Origin: Pyrodictiaceae archaeon
GTDB taxonomy: Archaea; Thermoproteota; Thermoprotei_A; Sulfolobales; WANQ01
Direction of reading: 5' to 3'
Assembly: GCA_015521735.1 (NCBI GenBank)
Contig: WANQ01000041.1
Coordinates: forward strand, 17,347 to 81,346
Length of the DNA stretch: 64,000 bases
Part shown: positions 20,068-57,610 of the stretch, piece by piece
How the letters are laid out: the number at the start of each line of letters is the position of its first letter
Numbering within the stretch: the first letter of the stretch is position 1
The notes under the pieces: generated by a model
Told to the model about the DNA's origin: nothing
What the model saw: only the letters and a program-made list of their open reading frames with translations
Databases searched by the model: none
Position numbers and translations under genes: made by a program

Positions 20068-20475
20068 TTATGGAAGAACTCTTACCCCACGTTTAACAGC
20101 TCTTCTCCTTAAGGCTTTATCAAATGTAGCTAAAGTTAACCCATAGTTCATAGCAGTAGCAAGTATTATGTAGTCATTTATTTCCTTAGAACCCGCCTTA
20201 TCTTCTACGAGCATTTTGAATGCACGTCTAAGTATGGTTATGGTTTCAGCTAGGTAAGTAGTCCTCGGGTCCCCTAAGTATTCTTCAACTTTAGATAACG
20301 TGAATAATGGGTCTAGGTTTAGGTAGCGTAGCATTATCCATATGTACTCATGTATTACTATTGATGGTATATAGAGTTCTAGTGCATCATCTATAATCCT
20401 AGAGGCTTCGCTATGGTATTCAGAGTCTTCTACAGTATCATAGACTAGTACATTCGTGTCAACGAGTAGCTTCAT
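20068..20475 (-). CDS. vapC: PIN-domain toxin VapC
   Basis: MKLLVDTNVLVY (first acidic residue), 135 aa, overlaps the upstream AbrB-type gene by 17 nt. Confidence 0.85.
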   Translation of the reverse strand: MKLLVDTNVLVYDTVEDSEYHSEASRIIDDALELYIPSIVIHEYIWIMLRYLNLDPLFTLSKVEEYLGDPRTTYLAETITILRRAFKMLVEDKAGSKEINDYIILATAMNYGLTLATFDKALRRRAVKRGVRVLP

Positions 20476-20701
20476 CTAGGTACTCCTCTACAGCTTCCTC
20501 TAACTCCTCAACACTTATTCTCCTACCAAGCCTTATCGTAGTACGTTTTCTCCGTAAAGGTATTATCTTGATAACGTTCTCACTACTATCATATACTACT
20601 CTAACCCTATCACCTTCACGTAATCCTATAAGTCTACGTATACTTGATGGAATGGTTACCTGGTAGTTTCTTGTAACTTTCACAATTTCCTCAATACTCA
20701 T
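20459..20701 (-). CDS. vapB: AbrB/SpoVT-type antitoxin VapB
   Basis: YQVTIPSSIRRLIGLREGDRVRVVYD swapped-hairpin motif, 80 aa, immediately upstream of the PIN gene. Confidence 0.8.
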   Translation of the reverse strand: MSIEEIVKVTRNYQVTIPSSIRRLIGLREGDRVRVVYDSSENVIKIIPLRRKRTTIRLGRRISVEELEEAVEEYLDEATR

Positions 20702-36308: not shown

Positions 36309-37763
36309 ATGCAGAGTATGCACTTATTCGTTAACCGTGAACTAGAGCTAAGACTACTAGAAGAACTTTGGAGGAGAAATAACGCGGTAATGGTTATCGT
36401 GTATGGTAGGAGGAGAATCGGTAAAACACTATTACTTAAAAAATTTATTGAAGGTAAGAGAGGGGTCTACTTACTAGCTGAGGAAGTTGAAGAAAGGGAG
36501 CTTATGAGGGAGTTTAGTGAAAGAATAGCTGAATCACTAAACATACCAGTACTTAAAATGAACCCTATAGATTCATGGCGTAAACTGTTAAGACTACTCT
36601 CAAGTATTTCTAGGGATGAGAGAACTATTGTAGTAATAGACGAGTTCCAGTATGCGGCTCGTAGTATACGTGGACTATTATCAACACTACAAGCTATATG
36701 GGATGAAGAACTCTCTAAGACAAAGATAATGCTAGTACTATGTGGGTCAATAGTATCGTTTGTAGAGGATAAAGTATTATCGGAAAAAGCACCGCTCTAC
36801 GGAAGGGTAACAAGCATACTAAGAATAGAGGAGTTGTCGCCACTATACATACCAGCATTTGCACCACAATGGAGTAGTGAAGACCATGTAAGACTATACA
36901 CTGTTTTCGGAGGAGTACCAGGATACCTATCATCAATAAACTACGAGGAAAACCTATGGGATAACATTAAAAGCCTAGTACTAAGGAAAAATGCACCATA
37001 CTTTGATGAAGCAAAGAAAATCCTGAGAGAAGAGGTAAGAGAAGTATCAAGATACTACTCTATACTAGAAGCAGTAGCAAATGGTGCAACAAGTTTTAGC
37101 GAAATAATAAACGCTACAGGTATACCTAGGGAATCACTATACAAGTACATTCAAGTACTAGTGGAAATGAATGTACTAGAAAAACAGTTACCAGTACTAG
37201 GGAAAGCAAAACCAGTATATAGGATAAGAGATAAATTCCTCCAATTCTGGTTTCGCTACAATGCAAGATATCGTACAGCACTAGAGCTAGAATTAGAAGA
37301 TAAAGTGCTCCAACACGTAAGAATAGACCTTGACAAATCACTTGTACCCATAGTATGGGAGGAAATTGTAAGACACATAGTATCCTACATGGCAAAACTA
37401 AACATAATAGACATAACACCAACAAAAATAGGTAAATGGTGGCATAAAGGAGAAGAAATAGACATACTAGTAGTAGACGAGATAACACGTAAACTAATTG
37501 TAGGTGAAGCTAAGTGGAGTAAGCTCTCACTAAGCGAAGCTAGGAAAATAGCCTATAAACTAGAAGAACTAGTAGACAAAATACCCTTCAAATCAAAAGA
37601 AGTAACAATACTAGTAGCAGCCAGAGAAATAGAGTTACAAGATAAACTCAAAGACGAAAACATACTAGTAATAACACTTAACACCTATAGAGAACTATCA
37701 ACAAGAATACTACGTGAAAGCAGTCTTAGAAAACACCAAGGAGAAATGCAAGCAATCCAGTAA
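36309..37763 (+). CDS. Archaeal ATPase (COG1672, Arch_ATPase + DUF234) with C-terminal PD-(D/E)xK-like module
   Basis: FVNRELELRLLEEL, Walker A YGRRRIGKT, Walker B VVIDEFQY, wHTH region, and C-terminal GKWWHKGEEIDILVVDE...LIVGEAKWSK (D...ExK nuclease-like motif). Confidence 0.8.
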   Translation: MQSMHLFVNRELELRLLEELWRRNNAVMVIVYGRRRIGKTLLLKKFIEGKRGVYLLAEEVEERELMREFSERIAESLNIPVLKMNPIDSWRKLLRLLSSISRDERTIVVIDEFQYAARSIRGLLSTLQAIWDEELSKTKIMLVLCGSIVSFVEDKVLSEKAPLYGRVTSILRIEELSPLYIPAFAPQWSSEDHVRLYTVFGGVPGYLSSINYEENLWDNIKSLVLRKNAPYFDEAKKILREEVREVSRYYSILEAVANGATSFSEIINATGIPRESLYKYIQVLVEMNVLEKQLPVLGKAKPVYRIRDKFLQFWFRYNARYRTALELELEDKVLQHVRIDLDKSLVPIVWEEIVRHIVSYMAKLNIIDITPTKIGKWWHKGEEIDILVVDEITRKLIVGEAKWSKLSLSEARKIAYKLEELVDKIPFKSKEVTILVAAREIELQDKLKDENILVITLNTYRELSTRILRESSLRKHQGEMQAIQ

Positions 37764-38568
37764 GCAATGGTACTTTAAGAATCCTCGTAGCCTTAAACGC
37801 ATTACCGTAATCTCTACCAACAATAAGTATAGAGTATAGTACTGGTACATCAACTCCAAGCACTGCTAACACAATATAGAACTCATTATACCCGTATAGA
37901 AGATACGGTATAGGGCTAATACCTATAACCAGCAATAACAATATAGTACCTATGATATAGGCGGTTTTTACACCAAGAACAACTGCAATAGTATTAACAC
38001 CATACCTTCTATCACCCTCAACATCCTCAATACCCTTATAGACCTCCCTACCAAGGATTAAGAGGAAAGCATAAAGACTAGGAATAATGCTTGGCCACGG
38101 GTTAGGAGAAGCTAGCCCACCATAAAGAATATTCAATCCCGATAAACCAGCTATAACCAGGTTACCTAGTACACCAGTCTTCTTAATCCACCTAGAATAC
38201 TCATACAAGAGTACACTAGCAATAAATGCTACAATAGGGCAAGGCCATGGCAATAGTATGCTAAGTAGGACACCAGTAACCATAAACCCTATTGAAGCAC
38301 GGTGAGCAGTAGCAGGAGATACAATACCACTAGGAATAGGTCTCCAAGGCTTATTTACAGCATCAATAAACCTATCAAAATAGTCGTTAACAACATTTCC
38401 ACCAGCACCAATAAGAAAAGCTGTTAACGCAGCTATAGCTAGAGTAGAAAGATCCCTACCACCACCACTAACATAACCTACAACAACAGCTAATGCGATC
38501 ATAGAAGCATTACCAATACGCACAAGCGAAAGCCAAGCCCTTAAACTCCTCCCCAACACCCCACCCAA
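37726..38568 (-). CDS. UbiA-family prenyltransferase, DGGGP-synthase-like
   Basis: NVVNDYFDRFIDAVNKPWRPIPSG (NxxxDxxxD motif), second Asp-rich region YKGIEDVEGDR, 8-9 TM segments. Confidence 0.85.
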   Translation of the reverse strand: MGGVLGRSLRAWLSLVRIGNASMIALAVVVGYVSGGGRDLSTLAIAALTAFLIGAGGNVVNDYFDRFIDAVNKPWRPIPSGIVSPATAHRASIGFMVTGVLLSILLPWPCPIVAFIASVLLYEYSRWIKKTGVLGNLVIAGLSGLNILYGGLASPNPWPSIIPSLYAFLLILGREVYKGIEDVEGDRRYGVNTIAVVLGVKTAYIIGTILLLLVIGISPIPYLLYGYNEFYIVLAVLGVDVPVLYSILIVGRDYGNAFKATRILKVPLLTGLLAFLLGVF

Positions 38569-38652: not shown

Positions 38653-41289
38653 ATGGACAAAGACAAAGGATACATAGTACTAATACCCCATACACACTGG
38701 GATCTCCAATGGTATTTATCTAGAAGCGAACTACAAGAATACCTCAGTAGACAGGTAAAATACTTAGTAAGCATACTAGAAGAGAAGAAAATACCCGTAT
38801 TCGTATTTGACGGACAAGTAGCACCAATACTAGAATTCCTGGAAACACACCCAGAATACCATAAGGTAATATCAAGTCTCATAGCTAAAGGAGCGCTAGA
38901 AGTAGGCCCATGGTATACACAACCAGATACATTCCTAGTAAACGGTGAATCCCTAATACGCAACCTAGTACTAGGCATAATACTATCAGAGAACCTTGGC
39001 TCAAAACCACCAATGATAGCATACCTACCCGACAGCTTTGGACTAACACCACAACTACCAGAAATACTATCCAAGGCAAACATAAACATAATAGTATTCG
39101 AGAGAGGTATGTGCCATGAACTAGAAAAAGGATTAGACTTCAAATGGACTAGCCCCAGTGGTAGAACAATACTAGCATACTATTTACTAAAAGGCTACTG
39201 TGGAGCAAGCTTCATAGGCTGTACTGAGGAAGCAAAAGTATACTCAACATGGACTACAAGCATCATTGAAGAAAAACCAGTCTACACACTAAGCTTCTTT
39301 AACCAAGACAAAATAGGATTCAATGAAGAAAAAGCAGTCACAGATACAGAGAAATTCCTAAGCGAACTAGAAGAATACTACAAACTCAAAGTAATAGTAA
39401 TGCCTATGGGCTGTGACCAATATATACCTAGAATGGACGTAGTAGAAGGACTAAAAACAATAATAGAAGCAATAGGAAAACTAGGGTACAAACCCATAAT
39501 TGGAGGATTAAGAGTACTTAAAGAACAATTAGAGAAAACCGATTGGAGTAAACTATACGAATATGTAGGAGAACTTAGATGCGCAAAATACCGTAACGTT
39601 CTATGGGGTACAGCTTCAACTAGAATAACGATAAAGCAGCTTAGCTTTAAACTAGAACAACTATTACAGAAAATACTAGAACCATTACTAGTTATAGGGC
39701 TAATTCTAGGAGTAAGCTATGAACATAACCTACACCGTAATGTATGGCTAAAACTACTTAGATCACAATTCCACGATGCAATATGTGGTACTGTAACAGA
39801 TCATGTAGCACGTAGAATAGAAAACGAGTTAGAAGAAGGATTAGAAACAACAAGATACATAGCATACCATACACTTGCAAACATAGTCAGGAAAGCAGAT
39901 ATAGTAGAAGACACCATAATAGTATACAACCCCCTACCCTATAGTACGTGGAATACAGTAAAACTACTACTACCAGCAAACACTGAGTGGAAAAGCATAG
40001 TAGTAGAAGGCAGTATTAGGCCCCTGGAAAAAACCAAAACACTTGAAACAATAAGCATGGCCGAATACACCTACACATACAATCACAAACCATTATCCAT
40101 AACAACAGCTAAGCCATTACCAAAAGAGTACAAGTTAGATACAGGTGTAGGTGCGAGAAACAACAGTATATGGAACCAGTACATTGAAGTAGTAGTAGAC
40201 AAGGAAAACTCAGCCATAATAGTACGTGATAAACGTACAGGTTTCGAAGTACCCATAGACATAGTAGACTATGGAGACTATGGTGACGTCTACGACTACA
40301 ATGAACCAGAAAACAACGACACAATTGAATGGAGCAAAGAACACATAGACACAGTTACAACCTCACATGGTAGTGTAGTAGCTAAAGCCATAGTTAAAGG
40401 CAAACTACTATTACCTAAAACAAGTAATGCTAAATCCAGATCCAAAGAACTAGTAGAAAACCCATATACCCTTGAACTACTATTATACGATCAAGTACCA
40501 AGACTAGAACTAGTACTTAGAATTAAGAACAACTCTGCAAACCATGTGCTAAGACTAAGAATACCACGTAGCAAAGACGTAGAAGTATACGGTAATAAAG
40601 CGTTCATGGTGGAAAAACTAGACGTTAAACCCATTGAAAAAATAGGCCCCGAAGTAGAGCCTTTAAACCATGTAGTAGAGTCTTGGATAGCACTTAAAAG
40701 TCCTAAAGGAGGAATAGCAATAGCATTAAACGGCCTACACGAAGTCTTCGTAAAAGAAGACTATATCGAGATAACACTCTACCGTAGCACTGGATGGCTC
40801 TCAAGAAGTGATCTAAAGACTAGGAAAGGCCATGCAGGACCACCAATACCAACACCAGAAGCACAATACCTAGGCAAGGAACTAGTATTCAATATAGCGT
40901 TAACGCCCTTCACACCTAGTGAATGGATAAATAAAGAGTTCTCAGCATACATAGAAGCATTCTATAGAAAACCAGTTACATTATACAATAACTTCCACAA
41001 AGGCAGTAGACATAGCTTAACCATAGAACTACTAGAACTACCACCCCAAATAATGCTATCAGCACTAAAACCCCGTGAACCTGAAAGAGGCAACGGTGTA
41101 GTGCTTAGAGTAGCTAACCCATGGAATAAGCCTATTAGCATTGACTTAAGCAAAAACGCTGTCACAAATAAGTATGGGTTACCTAGAAAAGCCTCAATAG
41201 ACGAGAACACTGTTAACGAAGAAGTAGGTGTACTAGAACTTAAACCCTATAGTATTGAGACACTAGTTTATAGTGGAATGAGGAAATGA
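38653..41289 (+). CDS. GH38 alpha-mannosidase
   Basis: N-terminal VLIPHTHWDLQWY, GPWYTQPD, AYLPDSFG, central QFHDAICGT. The 878-aa length is typical of prokaryotic GH38 enzymes. Confidence 0.85.
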   Translation: MDKDKGYIVLIPHTHWDLQWYLSRSELQEYLSRQVKYLVSILEEKKIPVFVFDGQVAPILEFLETHPEYHKVISSLIAKGALEVGPWYTQPDTFLVNGESLIRNLVLGIILSENLGSKPPMIAYLPDSFGLTPQLPEILSKANINIIVFERGMCHELEKGLDFKWTSPSGRTILAYYLLKGYCGASFIGCTEEAKVYSTWTTSIIEEKPVYTLSFFNQDKIGFNEEKAVTDTEKFLSELEEYYKLKVIVMPMGCDQYIPRMDVVEGLKTIIEAIGKLGYKPIIGGLRVLKEQLEKTDWSKLYEYVGELRCAKYRNVLWGTASTRITIKQLSFKLEQLLQKILEPLLVIGLILGVSYEHNLHRNVWLKLLRSQFHDAICGTVTDHVARRIENELEEGLETTRYIAYHTLANIVRKADIVEDTIIVYNPLPYSTWNTVKLLLPANTEWKSIVVEGSIRPLEKTKTLETISMAEYTYTYNHKPLSITTAKPLPKEYKLDTGVGARNNSIWNQYIEVVVDKENSAIIVRDKRTGFEVPIDIVDYGDYGDVYDYNEPENNDTIEWSKEHIDTVTTSHGSVVAKAIVKGKLLLPKTSNAKSRSKELVENPYTLELLLYDQVPRLELVLRIKNNSANHVLRLRIPRSKDVEVYGNKAFMVEKLDVKPIEKIGPEVEPLNHVVESWIALKSPKGGIAIALNGLHEVFVKEDYIEITLYRSTGWLSRSDLKTRKGHAGPPIPTPEAQYLGKELVFNIALTPFTPSEWINKEFSAYIEAFYRKPVTLYNNFHKGSRHSLTIELLELPPQIMLSALKPREPERGNGVVLRVANPWNKPISIDLSKNAVTNKYGLPRKASIDENTVNEEVGVLELKPYSIETLVYSGMRK

Positions 41290-42641
41290 CTAGAATAGTA
41301 TTCAAGTGCACTGGTTGCGGAAGAGAATACACTATACCAATGCTAAGATGCAGTAAATGCAATAGCCTACTAGAAGTAGTCGCAGATAAGAAGTGGAGTC
41401 CAAGAAGAAACACCTATAACATCTGGCGCTACGAGACAATGCTACCAAAACTAAATTACAAGTTTAGTTTAGGCGAGGGATGGACGCCAGTAATAGAGAG
41501 TAAATGGTATTCACGTCTACTTGGACTAAGAATACTATTCAAGGATGAATCAAGGAATCCTACTGGTAGCGTATTTGATAGATCCTCGGCTATTATCTCA
41601 AGCTACATATTAAGCACCAAGACTAGGCATAGAACAGTAGTTGTAGCAAGTGATGGAAATATGGGTGCTAGCCTACTAGCATATCTAGCGAATACAGGGA
41701 TAGAAGTTAAAGTAATTGTACCTAGAACAGTTGATGAAGGAAAGAAAGCCCAAATGAAACTCTACGGAGGCCATATAATAGAGTATGGAGACGTATTAGA
41801 TGAAGCAGTAGACTATGCAGTAAAACTTAGCCTAGAAAAGCACTACTATAATGCAACAGTAGAATACAACCCCCTAGCCAGAATAGCTCTAAGAACCATA
41901 GCATACGAGTTATACGAGCAAGCTGGTAAGCCTAACACAATAGTACTACCAGCAGCATCAGGTACAACAGCGTATGCTGTCTACAAGGGCTTCCAAGACC
42001 TAGTAGAACTAGGATTAATAGACAACACCCCAAGAATAATAGTAGTCCAAACACCACCATACCCAAGCATAGCATCACTAATAGAAAGCGTAAGCCTACC
42101 CTACACATCTACTCAGAGCATACCAGGTCTAACATATAGGCAACCACCACTAGGAAGCGAAGTAGCAAGAATAGTTAAGAAGACAAGTGGTGAAGCAATA
42201 GTAGTATCAGTTGAAGAAGTATATGAATCAGCTATACAACTTGCTAGAAAAGAAGGCTTACTAGTAGAACCAGCAAGTGCAGCAGTAATCGCAGGTCTAC
42301 ATAAAGCAAAGAAGCTAGAAGAACCAGTAGTAGCATTGCTAACAGGTTCAGGGCTTAAAATGCTAGCATCATACATTGAGCGTCGAAGAGGTAAGAGCAT
42401 ATACCATGTACCAACAAAGACAATGATATTGAGGATTATAGGAGAGGAAGAAGAAATACATGGATACGCTATATGGAGAAAGCTTTCAGGAAGAATAACT
42501 CCTCAAACAGTATACCAGCACCTATCAGAACTAAAGGAAATGGGCCTTGTAGAAGTAGAAGTAAAGAATAGAAGAAAGGTTTACAGGCTAACAAGTAAAG
42601 GTAAACAATTATTAGAAGTACTAAGTAGTCTTGAAACATAG
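41286..42641 (+). CDS. Threonine-synthase-fold (PLP fold type II) protein lacking the Schiff-base lysine, fused to a C-terminal PadR/MarR-like wHTH
   Basis: N-terminal Zn ribbon CTGCG...CSKCN and FSLGEGWTPVIE. NPTGSVFDRS replaces the canonical NPTGSFKDRG, ASDGNMGAS is retained, and the Gly-rich phosphate loop is replaced by AASGTT. C-terminal HGYAIWRKLSGRITPQTVYQHLSELKEMGLVEVEVKNRRKVYRLTSKG. ATGA overlap with the GH38 stop. Confidence 0.7.
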   Translation: MTRIVFKCTGCGREYTIPMLRCSKCNSLLEVVADKKWSPRRNTYNIWRYETMLPKLNYKFSLGEGWTPVIESKWYSRLLGLRILFKDESRNPTGSVFDRSSAIISSYILSTKTRHRTVVVASDGNMGASLLAYLANTGIEVKVIVPRTVDEGKKAQMKLYGGHIIEYGDVLDEAVDYAVKLSLEKHYYNATVEYNPLARIALRTIAYELYEQAGKPNTIVLPAASGTTAYAVYKGFQDLVELGLIDNTPRIIVVQTPPYPSIASLIESVSLPYTSTQSIPGLTYRQPPLGSEVARIVKKTSGEAIVVSVEEVYESAIQLARKEGLLVEPASAAVIAGLHKAKKLEEPVVALLTGSGLKMLASYIERRRGKSIYHVPTKTMILRIIGEEEEIHGYAIWRKLSGRITPQTVYQHLSELKEMGLVEVEVKNRRKVYRLTSKGKQLLEVLSSLET

Positions 42642-42680
42642 TACTAGAACGAGAAGACCTAACAACTCACCTCCAATACA

Positions 42681-43295
42681 ATGAGGGGCTATGTATTGGG
42701 GGATAGGATTAGCCAAGTATTATTTGAGGTTAAACGTAAGAGCATACACGTTATACCAGGATTTGCTGCAATACCTATAGTTGTATGGCTTGGTAAACAT
42801 GTAGCAATACCAATAGCAGTATTCTTTCTAGCACTATACACGTTAAATGAACTATATCTTAAAGGAATAGTAAAGTTCAAGGCACCAATAGCTTATCAAA
42901 CCTATCGTATAATGGCGCGTAGAGAAGAAGTAGAGAAGAGGTATTTTACTGGAACAATATATTTCTGGACAATGACGGTAGCAGTAATAGTACTATTAGA
43001 GCCAGTTAAAGCAGCAGCAACTGTAATGGTTTCAAGTCTAGGTGATGCTGCAGCCGCTATAACAGGTAAGGCTTTCCCTAATCCACGTAACCCATTGAAT
43101 AGAGGTAAGAGTATAGCTGGCTCTATAGCAATGTTCGCAGTATCACTACTATCATGTATTGTAGCAGGAATAAGTGTTAAGACATCACTCATAGTAGCAC
43201 TATTAGCTACTGTAACTGAAGCATTAACCACCATATCTGTTCTCGACGAGTTAACTGTACCAGTAGTTACAGCAACTACTCTATGGCTTCTCTAA
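42681..43295 (+). CDS. Dolichol/polyprenol kinase-like membrane protein (COG0170, CTP-dependent kinase family)
   Basis: EVKRKSIHV near the N-terminus, SSLGDAAAAITGKAF...RGKSIAGSIAMF, and the C-terminal LDELTVP pattern of the family. About 6 TM segments. Confidence 0.55.
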   Translation: MRGYVLGDRISQVLFEVKRKSIHVIPGFAAIPIVVWLGKHVAIPIAVFFLALYTLNELYLKGIVKFKAPIAYQTYRIMARREEVEKRYFTGTIYFWTMTVAVIVLLEPVKAAATVMVSSLGDAAAAITGKAFPNPRNPLNRGKSIAGSIAMFAVSLLSCIVAGISVKTSLIVALLATVTEALTTISVLDELTVPVVTATTLWLL

Positions 43296-53440: not shown

Positions 53441-54136
53441 TCATAATATGAAGCATGTTGCTAGGATAACTAGGCTCATAGCAATTAATGTCATTGTGTA
53501 GTTAAGCTTGTAGCTATAGGGTACTGGTTTAAGTAGTTCACAGCTTAGCTTGAAGTAACTGTACTCTAATAGGAATCTCTTGTGTTCTAGTATAGCAGCT
53601 GTTGATATGGCTATAGACTTCCATATTTTTTCGCCCTTAACTCTTTGAACACTATAGGCGTCGGCAACGTCCCTCAACATTACTGGTGTTAACCTCCATA
53701 GGAGTAGTGGTGCAATACTATACTTCTTTAAGCCAGTGAACCACATTATACGTGCTAGTTCATAGGGGCTGAGGCTAGTGAGAAAGAATAGTATAGCGAA
53801 ACTAAATGTGAGGCTCCTAACATATATTAATAGTAATGCAAGGGGGCTTATACTGTGAACTGTAACGTAGGCCGTAAGCCAACCACTAATGGATAACCAT
53901 AGAGCTGGAATAGATGATACAATTAGCATAGGCTTAATAGAACTCTTTAAACCACCAAAGTATGCTAGTATGAGCAATACGGTTAATGCAATAATGCTTG
54001 TGGCTAGTCCTTTGGATACACTATAAACTACTAGTACTACTGCCATGGCCTTAGCTATTATGTGGGCTCTACGAACACCAGTATCAGTGGCTAAGAATAA
54101 TGACTCGTAGACCTTGTTTACAAGCCATCCAAGCAT
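53441..54136 (-). CDS. ecfT: ECF transporter transmembrane (T) component
   Basis: 231 aa, 5-6 TM, CbiQ/EcfT-like. Start overlaps the stop of the ATPase gene by 1 nt. Confidence 0.7.
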   Translation of the reverse strand: MLGWLVNKVYESLFLATDTGVRRAHIIAKAMAVVLVVYSVSKGLATSIIALTVLLILAYFGGLKSSIKPMLIVSSIPALWLSISGWLTAYVTVHSISPLALLLIYVRSLTFSFAILFFLTSLSPYELARIMWFTGLKKYSIAPLLLWRLTPVMLRDVADAYSVQRVKGEKIWKSIAISTAAILEHKRFLLEYSYFKLSCELLKPVPYSYKLNYTMTLIAMSLVILATCFIL

Positions 54137-55434
54137 TATTTACCACCAAGTTCTAGGACATGGTCAGCTATAAAGTGTAGGTCTTCGTCATGACCTGCTA
54201 TTATGAAGCCAACACGTTTACGTAGAGCAGTAGTAGTAATGGCCTTGAATACTAGTGCCTTAGAGTATGGGTCAAGTCCAGCAGTTGGCTCATCTAGGCA
54301 TATTATACTGTATCCACGTGCAATAGCTGAAGCAATAGCTGCTCTTCTTCTCTCACCACTACTAGTATCTACTAGTCTACGAGAACCCATACCATGAAGT
54401 CCTACAAGGCTAAGCAGGCTTTCATCTCTAACTTCTTCAGAGATTGTAGGCTCGCTAAAGTATAGTAGAGGGTTTTCAGGGACATAGACTGTTTTTCCAA
54501 GTCTCTTAACAAACCCTTTAGTGGGTTTTAGCACACCTGATAAGATTTTTAATAGAGTTGTTTTACCTGAACCATTTGGCCCTTTAACCCATAGTACCTC
54601 GCCTTCTCTTAACTCTAAGCTAATGTCTTGGAGTATAAACTTGCTTGTACCGGGGTAGCGGTACCATAGATTACTGGCTACTAGTAGGTTATCGGTGTCC
54701 TCTATTCTAGGTTTGCGTTCAAATGAGATTTTATCTATGTAGGAGTAGTCTGGCTCGCCAAAGTATACTTGTGTGCCTTTATCTATTACTAGTAGCTTAC
54801 TGGCAAGATTCCACCATAAATTAGTATTGTGGTCTACTACTATAATGGTCTTACCTTCACTTAGTAGCTCTTCAGCAAATGATACAAGGCTCGCTCTACT
54901 ATTGTAGTCTATGTAGTTTGAGGGCTCATCTAGTAGGAATAGTGTTGGGTTTCTAACGGTATTTGATGCTATAACTGTTTTCTGGACTTCACCAGCACTA
55001 AGAGTATATGTTAGCTTATTGAGTATGTGGCTTAGACCGTAGGCTTTAACTATTTTCGGGATTAGCTTAAGGTCTTCTTTAACCATAAGCCTATTTACAA
55101 CTAGTTCACCGTAAACTGTTGGAGCGGTAATGGCGTACCAGGGTTCTTGTGGTATATAGGCTATTAGTTCAAGTATTCTCCTAGAGCTAAGATTATATGG
55201 GTTTAATCCAAAGATGCTTATATGGCCTTTAAATCCTCCATCAATGCTTACGCCTAGGACTCCGGCGATTATTCTTAGTAAGGTTGTTTTACCACTACCA
55301 CTTCTACCATAAACTAATAGTAGTTCACCTCTACTTAGCTTAAAAGAAATATTCTTTAAGGCAACCATGTCATTGGTATACCATGCTTTCTCTATGCTTA
55401 CAATGATGTTGTCATTCCTTAACATATCCTGCAC
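54136..55434 (-). CDS. ecfA: ECF transporter duplicated ATPase (fused EcfA-EcfA')
   Basis: Two ABC cassettes: GRSGSGKTT / LSAGEVQ / LFLLDEPSNYID and GPNGSGKTT / SSGERRR / IICLDEPTAGLD. Confidence 0.85.
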   Translation of the reverse strand: MQDMLRNDNIIVSIEKAWYTNDMVALKNISFKLSRGELLLVYGRSGSGKTTLLRIIAGVLGVSIDGGFKGHISIFGLNPYNLSSRRILELIAYIPQEPWYAITAPTVYGELVVNRLMVKEDLKLIPKIVKAYGLSHILNKLTYTLSAGEVQKTVIASNTVRNPTLFLLDEPSNYIDYNSRASLVSFAEELLSEGKTIIVVDHNTNLWWNLASKLLVIDKGTQVYFGEPDYSYIDKISFERKPRIEDTDNLLVASNLWYRYPGTSKFILQDISLELREGEVLWVKGPNGSGKTTLLKILSGVLKPTKGFVKRLGKTVYVPENPLLYFSEPTISEEVRDESLLSLVGLHGMGSRRLVDTSSGERRRAAIASAIARGYSIICLDEPTAGLDPYSKALVFKAITTTALRKRVGFIIAGHDEDLHFIADHVLELGGK

Positions 55435-56146
55435 GCCTAAGGAAGACTACTACGGGCAATGCTATGCTAGCACCTATAACTGCTTGGCCAATATTAACTG
55501 GTACTTCAACTAATGCTGCAATAGGTGGTCTACCAGTTAATGGGTTGGATACGAAGTATTCGTAGAGGAAGTAGCCAGTAACCATGATTAAGCCAGCAAG
55601 CATTAATCCTAGAGCTTCAACGCTACGGTACTGTTTAGCTAGTGCTAGGTATATTATTAGTAGGAATACTAGTCCTGCTACAGCAATCCAGAAGAATAAT
55701 GGCAATGTTATTGTAAAGCTAGCCCACTCCGGACCTACAAGTATTTCGCCAGTAAAGTATTGTGAGCCAATATATCCTAGTATTAAGCCGTAGGCCATTG
55801 CTGCTAGTACTCCAAGGCCTATAGCCGTTGATGGTCTTAGGTTTTTGAGTCTACGTGTAAGTATGCCTGCTATGAGTCCTTCAGTAAACTTTATAACTAG
55901 TGTTGCAGGTGCGAAGATTCCATAACCTGTAACTGCATCAGCAATACTAGCGCCAACACCACCAGCAATACCTGCAACAAGTGGTGAGGAAACCATAGCT
56001 GCAATGTAGATTACGGCTTCACCGAGGTTAAAGTATCCACCAGTAGCAGGCTGATATACTTGAATAACAATGGTAACCGCGAATACTAGCACAGTGAACA
56101 CTATAGCTTCAATGAATAGTGCTACTGAACTTCTACGTCTTGCCAT
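55412..56146 (-). CDS. ECF transporter substrate-capture (S) component-like membrane protein
   Basis: GGYFNLGEAVIYIAAM...GGVGASIADAVTGYGIFAPATLVIKFTEGLIAG follows the S-component pattern. 6 TM. Overlaps the ATPase gene by 23 nt. Confidence 0.65.
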   Translation of the reverse strand: MARRRSSVALFIEAIVFTVLVFAVTIVIQVYQPATGGYFNLGEAVIYIAAMVSSPLVAGIAGGVGASIADAVTGYGIFAPATLVIKFTEGLIAGILTRRLKNLRPSTAIGLGVLAAMAYGLILGYIGSQYFTGEILVGPEWASFTITLPLFFWIAVAGLVFLLIIYLALAKQYRSVEALGLMLAGLIMVTGYFLYEYFVSNPLTGRPPIAALVEVPVNIGQAVIGASIALPVVVFLRRAGYVKE

Positions 56147-56233
56147 TAGCCTAACCCCAAGTAGACAAGAAGAATACTAATAAGAATTTAACATCTAACC
56201 TGAATACTAAGATAATAGGATAACAGTGGGATA

Positions 56234-57610
56234 CTACTTTGATGTCCTGGGAGTCTTCTTAACGATTTCATTAAAGTCTTTTAGATCCCATGTGTATTCT
56301 TCCTTAACTTCTACTTCTCTAGCTATTACTCCATAGTATTTCTCGTAGTCATCTAGTTTCGTGTACTTTGCTGTTTGCTCTAGTTTACTAATTAATCTAT
56401 TAACGTCTCTACTGTCAAGTTTACTCCACTTTACCTCAATGAATAATGCCTTCTTCTCCTTCTCGTTGAACGCTACTATGTCTATTTCCTTATCTCTATA
56501 CCACCACTTACCTATCCTAGTAAACTTAAAGGGGAGTTTACCGAGCTTGTTTAATTCTACTAGGAATTGTCTTGCAACCTTCTCAAATACCCATCCTAGA
56601 TAGTTTGGGTAGTCTTCTCTAATCTCATCTACATTGAATATTCGCTCTTCTATAGCTGAGAGATTTGGATGTATGTATCTAAACCAGAATGTAATGAAGT
56701 TGTCTGTGATATAGTATCTACCCTTCTTGGATCTAGGATCCTCGGTTACGGGTACTTCTCTTATGATGAATCCTGTTTCTATGAGGTTTCTTAGGTACTG
56801 AGTTATATCTGAATGTCTCATTCTAACGTATTCTCGAATCTCCTTGGGGGTGTTTTTGCCGTGGGCTATGGCTTCAAGTATTCTCTTATAGGTTACTATT
56901 TCCGTAAACTCGTATTTCATTAGAAAGTCTAGTTCATCTTTAAGGAACGTATCTGGTTTCTCTAATTCTCTTTTAAGCCATTCCCAGAAGGGTATTCTAA
57001 TCTTTTCCAGATAGTATGGTATTCCATCAGCAAAGCCATAGATTTCTACTAGTTCACTCCAAGTAGCTTTAGGGAAAAATTCTCTTAGGTGGAAGAATTT
57101 TAGTGGGCCTAGTTTTATTGAAGCAGTTCTCCTACCATAGAGTGGGCTTTTATAGCTTAATACTCTACTAGTCATCATCGAAATAGATGAGCCTAAGAGT
57201 ACTAGTTTAGTCCTAGTACCCTTTAAGGTTAAGTCGACTATACGTTGAAGCAATGATACTATTCCTGGATTCTCCTTTATTAGGTTAGGAAATTCATCTA
57301 TGATAATAATCCTGTTTTTCAGGAAGTTAAAGTATGCTTCCCAATCTTCTTGAGCATAGGCTAGTTCTGGTACAATCTTGGATGCTGTACGCTTAAAGTA
57401 TCTTAGATTATCACCTTCTACTGCTAAGTAGTATATGTGTTCTCTATTCCTTACAGCTTCCAGTATAAGCCTAGTCTTACCTATCCTCCTCCTACCATAT
57501 ATTATTATTAACTCAAAGCTATCGCTATCTAGTCTACTCCTTAAAGCCTTAAGCTCTTCCTCTCTGTCCACGAACAAGATAACCGCCATTATGATAATCT
57601 GGGTTATCAA
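56234..57610 (-). CDS. Archaeal ATPase (COG1672, Arch_ATPase + DUF234) with C-terminal PD-(D/E)xK-like module, paralog 2
   Basis: FVDREEELKAL, Walker A YGRRRIGKT, Walker B IIIDEFPN, and C-terminal GKWWYRDKEIDIVAFNE...LFIEVKWSK. Likely real start is M8 (MAVILFVDRE, nt 57589). Confidence 0.8.
   Translation of the reverse strand: MITQIIIMAVILFVDREEELKALRSRLDSDSFELIIIYGRRRIGKTRLILEAVRNREHIYYLAVEGDNLRYFKRTASKIVPELAYAQEDWEAYFNFLKNRIIIIDEFPNLIKENPGIVSLLQRIVDLTLKGTRTKLVLLGSSISMMTSRVLSYKSPLYGRRTASIKLGPLKFFHLREFFPKATWSELVEIYGFADGIPYYLEKIRIPFWEWLKRELEKPDTFLKDELDFLMKYEFTEIVTYKRILEAIAHGKNTPKEIREYVRMRHSDITQYLRNLIETGFIIREVPVTEDPRSKKGRYYITDNFITFWFRYIHPNLSAIEERIFNVDEIREDYPNYLGWVFEKVARQFLVELNKLGKLPFKFTRIGKWWYRDKEIDIVAFNEKEKKALFIEVKWSKLDSRDVNRLISKLEQTAKYTKLDDYEKYYGVIAREVEVKEEYTWDLKDFNEIVKKTPRTSK

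Follow-up and report, generated by a model that had tools for sequence, protein, structure and literature searches.

A stretch of 64,000 nt from the genome of a Pyrodictiaceae archaeon (assembly GCA_015521735.1, contig WANQ01000041.1, positions 17,347–81,346 of the forward strand; below, the window) contains a gene whose product combines a threonine synthase (ThrC) fold, devoid of the lysine that anchors pyridoxal 5'-phosphate (PLP), with a C-terminal winged helix–turn–helix (wHTH) domain of the PadR type. Because of this combination, a ligand-sensing transcription factor is the sensible reading, and we consider the protein a ThrC-derived, ligand-sensing one-component regulator, possibly B6-sensing, of an energy-coupling factor (ECF) importer, with a probability of about 0.6 for this reading as a whole. 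The parts of the reading differ in strength: the protein is very probably a non-catalytic DNA-binding regulator; its family is likely to be tied in function to an ECF importer with an S component of the PF07155 family; and a B6 vitamer (PLP, pyridoxamine 5'-phosphate, or pyridoxamine), held non-covalently, is a tentative candidate for the ligand. The regulator belongs to a large archaeal family and is not a singular oddity. A preliminary description of this DNA had proposed a ligand-sensing transcription factor derived from ThrC; the fold, the loss of the lysine, and the winged helix bear this out, while the glycan-related target suggested there is poorly supported.

Domain layout and loss of the Schiff-base lysine

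The regulator gene, its parts, and the gene that it overlaps are as follows.

41286..42641, forward strand: gene for the regulator, a ThrC-fold pseudoenzyme with a PadR-type wHTH, 451 aa, ATG start (Pfam PALP and PadR, AlphaFold2 model)
41286..41289, forward strand: ATGA overlap of the regulator start (ATG, 41286–41288) with the stop of the GH38 gene (TGA, 41287–41289)
41307..41360, forward strand: Zn ribbon at the N-terminus of the regulator, C8, C11, C22, and C25 (CxxC...CxxC)
41466..42347, forward strand: PLP fold-type-II (ThrC-like) domain, residues 61–354 (Pfam PALP, Foldseek)
41574..41576, forward strand: codon for F97 at the position of the Schiff-base lysine (alignments to 2D1F, 6CGQ, and 2ZSJ; profile column)
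41952..41969, forward strand: AASGTT, residues 223–228, at the position of the PLP-phosphate loop (aligned to VGNAGN of 2D1F)
42387..42413, forward strand: flexible linker, residues 368–376 (pLDDT)
42414..42635, forward strand: PadR-type winged helix, residues 377–450 (Pfam PadR; DSSP H-H-H-E-E-H)
within 42414..42635, forward strand: putative recognition helix of the wHTH, residues 406–418, TPQTVYQHLSELK
38653..41289, forward strand: GH38 alpha-mannosidase gene, 878 aa, overlapping the regulator start, same operon (Pfam Glyco_hydro_38N, Alpha-mann_mid, and Glyco_hydro38C2)

The PALP profile is matched over its full length (residues 61–354, profile positions 2–295 of 295, E = 4.7e-63). In the AlphaFold2 model (mean pLDDT 92.9), for which an alignment of 91 family sequences served as input, a ThrC fold is followed by a linker and by a winged helix of the form helix-helix-helix-hairpin-helix. 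Foldseek matches this model best to threonine synthases, namely 6NMX, 2D1F, and 1V7C (E about 1e-23), with the alignments restricted to roughly the first 330 columns. The four cysteines of the Zn ribbon are invariant in a 22-sequence alignment (A1), and the ribbon is also found in lysine-bearing archaeal relatives. The archaeal ThrC layout with its Zn ribbon, noted in the preliminary description, is thus upheld, and so is the replacement of the lysine: F97 lies opposite the Schiff-base lysine in each of three independent phmmer alignments (to 2D1F, 6CGQ, and 2ZSJ), with NPTGSVFDRS in the regulator for NPTGSFKDRG. The same description had taken AASGTT as a replacement of the Gly-rich loop. The change is real, but not diagnostic, as similar loops, e.g., PVASGSL and PIGSGGL, occur in lysine-bearing archaeal relatives; G226 within the loop is invariant family-wide.

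The C-terminal winged helix, likewise foreseen, is recovered both by Pfam PadR (PF03551; residues 381–444, profile positions 1–74 of 75, E = 5.6e-11, 42.7 bits against a cutoff of 27) and by the topology of the model, where DSSP assigns helices at 377–388, 393–399, and 406–418, strands at 422–427 and 430–435, and a final helix at 437–450, with pLDDT mostly above 90. The linker has pLDDT below 70 over about 368–376 and below 50 at residues 371–374. Within the putative recognition helix, Y410, Q411, H412, and L416 are near-invariant in the family. The overlap of the regulator start with the GH38 stop is confirmed, and GAGG can be read 5–8 nt 5' of the regulator ATG.

Homologues were sought among 5.8 billion proteins, yielding more than 1300 matches; the best 120, which were inspected, are mainly 430–500 aa long with PALP and PadR. 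These best matches come from Thermoproteota, Bathyarchaeia, Thermococcales, and Odin-, Thor-, Heimdall-, and Lokiarchaeota, with Pyrococcus horikoshii O50114 (WP_010885490.1), P. abyssi, and Thermococcus spp. among the Thermococcales. Relatives that carry a name are called "threonine synthase" or "pyridoxal-phosphate dependent enzyme" in the databases (NF004170/PRK05638); the proteins of Pyrococcus, Thermococcus, Bathyarchaeia, and Odinarchaeum named NF004170 lack the lysine too, having Arg there. We enlarged the sample with a profile search of 1.84 billion cluster representatives, of which the 150 best were taken, and aligned 263 proteins in total to the family profile to score the Schiff-base column.

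The lysine is absent from 187 of the 190 relatives with a wHTH tail and present in 70 of the 73 without it. In the tailed proteins, the column holds Arg (76), Leu (41), Ile (26), Val (14), Phe (9), Met (7), Tyr (5), Thr (5), and Ser, Asn, Ala, and His (one each). The three tail-less proteins without lysine comprise two apparently truncated or frame-shifted ones and P0221 (Val); the three fused proteins with lysine are P0037, P0125, and P0129 (NPT[SN]SFKDR). The nearest relatives of P0037 (55–56% identity) are solely R-type, so that P0037 is most simply explained by an R-to-K reversion. The remaining PLP-site motifs, NPTGS-x-x-DR, S-x-GN, P-x-G-S-G, EG-x-F-x-EP, and TG-x-GLK, are equally conserved in proteins with and without the lysine.

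Such near-perfect covariation of lysine loss with the winged helix over 263 relatives is more than chance, and a variable residue at the catalytic position together with a preserved pocket points to a sensor derived from an enzyme, neither an enzyme nor a decaying gene. The lysine-less family with a ThrC fold and a wHTH comprises at least about 110 clusters at 50% identity, and the window protein has all of its traits (Zn ribbon, PALP without lysine, Y-Q-H-L helix). Mechanistically, the loss of the lysine from an otherwise kept cofactor pocket would let the ThrC-derived domain bind a cofactor, or another small molecule, reversibly, as suits a sensor, while the winged helix on its flexible linker would bind DNA; the protein is probably a dimer, formed via the ThrC-like domain.

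That the protein is a genuine enzyme as annotated, a threonine synthase or one with another PLP-dependent activity, with a DNA-binding tail besides is highly improbable. The database names, the three fused relatives with lysine, and the match of the regulator to the 442-position model NF004170 (378.6 bits; residues 6–446, wHTH included) speak for it, but the match falls short of the cutoff of 421, the Schiff-base lysine is missing, and its substitutes vary widely (R, L, I, V, M, F, Y, T, S, N, A, H), as would not be expected of a catalytic residue. All known fold-type-II enzymes rely on this lysine both for proton transfer and for transaldimination. The score against TIGR00260 is 95.2 bits (cutoff 167.1), and all remaining ThrC equivalogs are likewise below their cutoffs. 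As both the lysine test and the curated score cutoff are failed, the regulator should not be filed as a threonine synthase.

Class-II threonine synthases are dimers, and the aromatic residue at the lysine position of the window clade could fill the pocket, both of which would agree with a ligand-free ThrC-like domain acting as a mere dimerisation scaffold that places two winged helices. This is quite unlikely, as four PLP-site motifs are invariant or nearly so over phylum-level divergence (about 32–40% identity), which is hard to explain without a ligand.

The linked importer and the candidate ligand

We retrieved 80 genome loci (numbered with L below) with R-type members only as the query, so that this set is biased to R-type proteins. 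The top conserved neighbour across these loci is the ECF S gene of the PF07155 family, present in 34 and located at +1 on the strand of the regulator in 27 of the 34; a fused double ATPase and a T component follow the S gene in about 26 loci. Other arrangements are also seen: S alone is 3' of the regulator in Bathyarchaeia (L053, L065, L067) and in a Thermoproteota metagenome-assembled genome (L043); in Freyarchaeia (L084), S is likewise alone and lies on the strand opposite to that of the regulator; it is convergent with the regulator in L003 and L041; and it is divergent, with spacers of 52 and 86 nt, for the L-type members in L093 and L094. In the reciprocal test, a metagenome scan anchored on the window S protein gave 53 loci with at least 1.5 kb upstream, and a regulator is beside S in 28 of these: tandem pairs account for 16 of the R type and 8 of the I type, divergent ones for 3 of the I type, and one is of the A type. 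Adjacency that survives several rearrangements and spans several subfamilies argues for a functional link of the regulator with S, and at the level of the family the target would be the promoter of an importer with a PdxU/PdxU2 (PF07155) S component. This points to the uptake of a micronutrient, perhaps vitamin B6, and away from glycans. The further conserved neighbours seen in Thermococcales and Bathyarchaeia (aCPSF1, proteasome beta, ribose-5-phosphate isomerase, GatD/GatE, MCM, XPF) are housekeeping genes by sequence, and we took them for lineage synteny and rejected them as functional links.

The window has an operon of this kind on the reverse strand.

55412..56146, reverse strand: ECF S component (PF07155, PdxU/PdxU2 family; tblastn 53–58% to the L003 and L006 S genes, Pfam E = 4.9e-25)
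54136..55434, reverse strand: fused double ABC ATPase EcfA-A' (tblastn; Pfam ABC_tran twice)
53441..54136, reverse strand: ECF T component (tblastn 42% identity to the L003 T component; no Pfam match)

The sole sequence match of the window S protein in PDB is 4HZU chain S (E = 2e-6), i.e., PdxU2, whose substrate is pyridoxamine and from which this vitamer has been extracted (PMC4860826). Very few B6 transporters of prokaryotes have been characterised; two of the three listed as such, PdxU and PdxU2/HmpT, belong to PF07155 (COG4720), and the linked S components share with PdxU2 both the Pfam family and the COG (PMC9997740). The 34 regulator-linked S proteins retain the PdxU2 pocket residues E41, Y120, N140, and Q143 as well as the aromatic nature of position 76. 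In size they differ from PdxU2, with about 240 aa against 166 aa, and judging by their sequences the regulator-linked S components are a distinct, uncharacterised subgroup of PF07155. B6 is the leading hypothesis for the ligand, because two independent lines, the kept PLP-type pocket and the PdxU-family neighbour, point to it.

Alternatively, the sensor domain might respond to amino acids or their phosphorylated forms (threonine, O-phosphohomoserine, serine, or intermediates of the cysteine pathway), with or without non-covalent PLP, and thereby report amino-acid status, by analogy with GabR, for which PLP mediates the sensing of GABA. The ancestor handled amino acids, the asparagine loop S-x-GN and EG-x-F-x-EP are kept, and the Arg that 76 members have in place of the lysine could be the partner of a carboxylate. 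In Thermogladius sp. 4427co (L006/L009), moreover, a gene of the Lrp/AsnC family (L006 6561–7004) overlaps the start of the ThrC-wHTH gene and a glutamine synthetase gene is divergent upstream, a context that may link the regulator to nitrogen or amino-acid status in that lineage. However, the regulator has V-E-Y-N-P-L-A at the positions aligned to the canonical ThrC stretch NS-x-NP-x-R, and G-N-M at those aligned to S-T-G-N and the Thr that follows it, neither of which is kept in the family. This stretch and the Thr after S-T-G-N presumably bind the phosphate of O-phosphohomoserine, as in the T. thermophilus structures. Nor is any amino-acid biosynthesis gene recurrent among the conserved neighbours of the regulator, the recurrent partner being a vitamin-type ECF S component. 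We therefore regard amino-acid sensing as unlikely.

In Heimdallarchaeota (L092, 6510–7367), an aldo-keto reductase gene adjoins an L-type regulator, with no ECF gene nearby, a single weak case. The aldo-keto reductase family includes pyridoxine 4-dehydrogenase, PdxI (PMC9997740).

Candidate operators and the window copy

Loci of Desulfurococcales contain an 18-bp palindrome, [AT]TAAAG-N6-CTTTA[AT] (TTAAAG-N6-CTTTAA), with 34 matches in 1.35 Mb against 0.85 expected from shuffled sequences. In 29 of the 34 cases it is located 30–58 nt 5' of an S start codon (26 of the 35 S-containing loci), and three further copies have the same context on broken contigs. The arms are fixed and the spacer is variable, while the 3' arm overlaps a TATA-like CTTTATA; the palindrome is tandemly duplicated in L005 and L033–L036, and L043 has an imperfect second copy. 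Examples are given below.

L009 11320–11337 and L034 3393–3428 (from the L009–L043 set): palindromes 5' of ECF S genes
L009 10001–11305: R-type orthologue of the regulator in Thermogladius sp. 4427co
Thermogladius, putative operator: cttCTTAAAGtttaaaCTTTAAtaac

The S promoters of the Bathyarchaeia type (L053, L065, L067, L165, L172) have a different palindrome, AGTATAGTT-N2-AACTATACT, in the same place. Candidate operators thus differ from lineage to lineage although the recognition helix (A/T-V-Y-Q-H-L) is near-invariant.

In Desulfurococcales, a predicted operator over a TATA-like element would fit a repressor that blocks access to the promoter. Taken one step further, the family may be an archaeal B6 sensor-regulator, a counterpart of PdxR built from a fold-type-II enzyme, whose holo-protein on the TATA palindrome would shut off uptake of the PdxU type; we put this forward as a speculative version, with odds clearly below even. 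In Bacteria, the MocR-type regulator PdxR controls pdxST, pdxK, and pdxU; Archaea have no regulators of the MocR type (PMC5320631).

The copy in the window is a derived member of the family, and its targets and ligand are deduced only. Adjacency of the regulator and the S gene, seen in the locus of its 58%-identical orthologue (L003), is lacking here: the nearest end of the ECF operon (53441–56146, reverse strand) is 10.8 kb away from the regulator, and the S gene is 12.8 kb from the regulator stop. In L003, GH38 and the regulator are convergent with T-A-S, Maf is found further on, and MFS, AIM24, and DUF1028 genes are upstream of GH38; in the window, the latter three lie between the regulator and the ECF operon, so that the window is rearranged relative to L003. 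The window copy, one of those with Phe or Tyr at the lysine position, would be co-transcribed with GH38 and have been split from the ECF operon by rearrangement, and its operator and ligand may have shifted. That it still controls the operon at 53441–56146 is possible, though doubtful.

The search for sites shared by the relevant promoters gave one candidate.

56198..56209, reverse strand: 12-mer TAGTATTCAGGT / TAGTATTCARGT, candidate regulatory element (weak evidence), conserved 5' of S in the window, L003, and L100

The only other exact copy of TAGTATTCARGT in the window is at 41296–41307 on the forward strand, 10 nt inside the regulator open reading frame, at codons 4–8; it could be a site of self-regulation or a coincidence of the I-V-F-K-C codons. 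With one mismatch, six matches are found in the window against 2.1 expected, making the 12-mer suggestive at best. Among other candidates tried as the window operator, TAAAG-N6-CTTTA has a single match (1355–1370, in a coding region; about seven are expected with one mismatch allowed); TAGTATTC has 26 matches against 6 expected, mostly in coding regions, and TAGTACTA has 17 against 9.5, and both are common words in this genome; we rejected all three. Neither promoter, that of GH38 or that of S, contains an inverted repeat in a scan that also covered the region 3' of the regulator.

The preliminary description had suggested control of mannoside or glycan catabolism. A sugar- or glycan-derived ligand, with regulation of the GH38 operon (mannoside or N-glycan turnover), would agree with the overlap of the regulator start with the GH38 stop and with the retention of this junction, always overlapping, in four lineages of 58–88% identity: L001/L002 (about 100%), L089/L090 (65%), L091 (64%), and L003/L004 (58%). 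The clade-specific pocket changes fit an altered ligand, and an exact copy of the S-promoter 12-mer is located at the junction. However, the GH38-linked regulators are exactly those with Phe or Tyr at the lysine position, and outside this clade no GH38 linkage is seen in the 80 genome loci and 28 metagenome loci. Co-transcription is no proof of regulation, a PLP-type pocket is no obvious sugar sensor, and comparison by eye shows no common motif 5' of GH38 in the window, L003, L089/L090, and L091. The suggestion thus comes down to an adjacency confined to one clade, and we find it unlikely.

Several observations weigh against a regulator of B6-type ECF uptake, be it in the family or in the window. 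Members from Thermococcales, many Bathyarchaeia, and Asgard archaea (a Heimdallarchaeon) have no ECF gene within 10 kb, and many Desulfurococcales loci share their arrangement by descent and are not independent observations. The 3' half of the palindrome is TATA-like, and part of its conservation could reflect promoter sequence. PdxU2 residues H84, Q87, and S136 are Lys, Glu, and Glu in 33–34 of the 34 linked S proteins, and the S protein matches no NCBIfam equivalog, with sub-threshold scores only to TIGR04002, a RibU-type model, and the FolT family; the pocket is hence akin to that of PdxU2 without being the same, and a B6 vitamer is no more than a candidate for the substrate of the S component. 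In the window, the Desulfurococcales palindrome is absent from intergenic regions, and no significant operator can be defined for this copy. The pocket of the Phe/Tyr clade is changed, with S-(V/M/L)-(F/Y) for S-F-R, IALRT or TALKT for EGQKT, and PAASG for PxGSG, so that the ligand of this clade may differ, or ligand binding may be absent. Finally, we infer both the ligand and the DNA site, and likewise whether the protein represses or activates.

Relation to known systems and other features of the window

Compared with class-II threonine synthases (2D1F, 6CGQ/6NMX, 1V7C, 2ZSJ), the regulator has the same fold (TM-score 0.78–0.83 on the target, 26–30% identity) and shares all PLP-site motifs save the lysine, as well as, with lysine-bearing archaeal relatives, the Zn ribbon. 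It differs from them by F97, by the altered NS-x-NP-x-R positions, and by an extra 85-residue segment of linker and wHTH; no solved structure covers the full architecture. The proteins of NF004170 (PRK05638; O50114) have the same full-length architecture, relative to which the window protein is of a diverged Phe/Tyr clade and scores below the cutoff.

The MocR regulators (GabR, PdxR, TauR) embody the same idea, the fold of a PLP enzyme serving as the effector domain of a wHTH regulator. They have an N-terminal wHTH of the GntR type and a fold-type-I (aminotransferase) domain and are only bacterial, whereas the family described here has a fold-type-II domain, a C-terminal PadR wHTH, and no lysine, and is archaeal; hence, it does not belong to MocR, and the ThrC-wHTH family is an independent invention. 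MocR proteins retain the PLP lysine. As for PadR (PF03551), the wHTH of the regulator scores above the gathering threshold, fits the topology, including the C-terminal helix, and in relatives is accompanied by palindromic candidate operators. Typical PadR proteins are 110–180 aa long, with an N-terminal wHTH and sites of the ATGT-N8-ACAT type, while in the present family a 370-aa sensor precedes the wHTH and the candidate operators are of another kind.

Enzyme-derived one-component regulators are a known kind; what is new is the version with a fold-type-II domain and a C-terminal PadR domain. We found no literature description of a ThrC-like regulator with a wHTH, although coverage of the literature was incomplete and an earlier description is possible. 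The preliminary description had regarded the type as undescribed, which agrees with this result, except that the family is already catalogued, as "threonine synthase" (NF004170/PRK05638).

The annotation of the family names an enzymatic activity that is almost certainly lacking and can lead to false calls of threonine biosynthesis in metabolic reconstructions. If the proposed function is true, hundreds of archaeal "threonine synthase" annotations (Pyrococcus, Thermococcus, Asgard) refer to regulators, and an archaeal analogue of PdxR fills the gap left by the absent MocR; we know of no described archaeal regulator of vitamin B6. From the evolutionary point of view, the family is a case of an enzyme turned sensor, where the loss of one catalytic residue coincides almost perfectly with the acquisition of a DNA-binding domain and the pocket is kept. 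The gene pair is a testable candidate for a regulator and an importer, accompanied in Desulfurococcales by a predicted operator, and the regulator gene is present in cultured relatives (Thermogladius, Pyrococcus, Thermococcus). The window gene itself, being a derived member, is of smaller significance.

The remaining observations concern the surroundings of these genes. The region 3' of the regulator encodes a multi-pass membrane protein of 204 aa (42681–43295, forward strand) with no Pfam match, and a perfect 8-nt inverted repeat, CCAATACA-N11-TGTATTGG (42673–42699), straddles its ATG at 42681; the repeat may fold into an RNA hairpin that spans the start codon, or else be bound by a protein. 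A scan of the whole 64-kb window with Rfam gave no family at gathering score. A prenyltransferase of the UbiA family is encoded divergently upstream of GH38 (37726–38568, reverse strand), so that the GH38–regulator pair has membrane-protein genes on both sides. Two paralogous "archaeal ATPase" genes (ATPase_2 and DUF234, with an internal wHTH-like segment) are located at 36309–37763 (forward strand), near the GH38 operon, and at 56234–57610 (reverse strand), directly 5' of the ECF S gene. At 20068–20701 (reverse strand), there is a VapBC-like pair of overlapping genes, encoding a PIN-domain toxin of 135 aa and a MazE/AbrB-type antitoxin of 80 aa.

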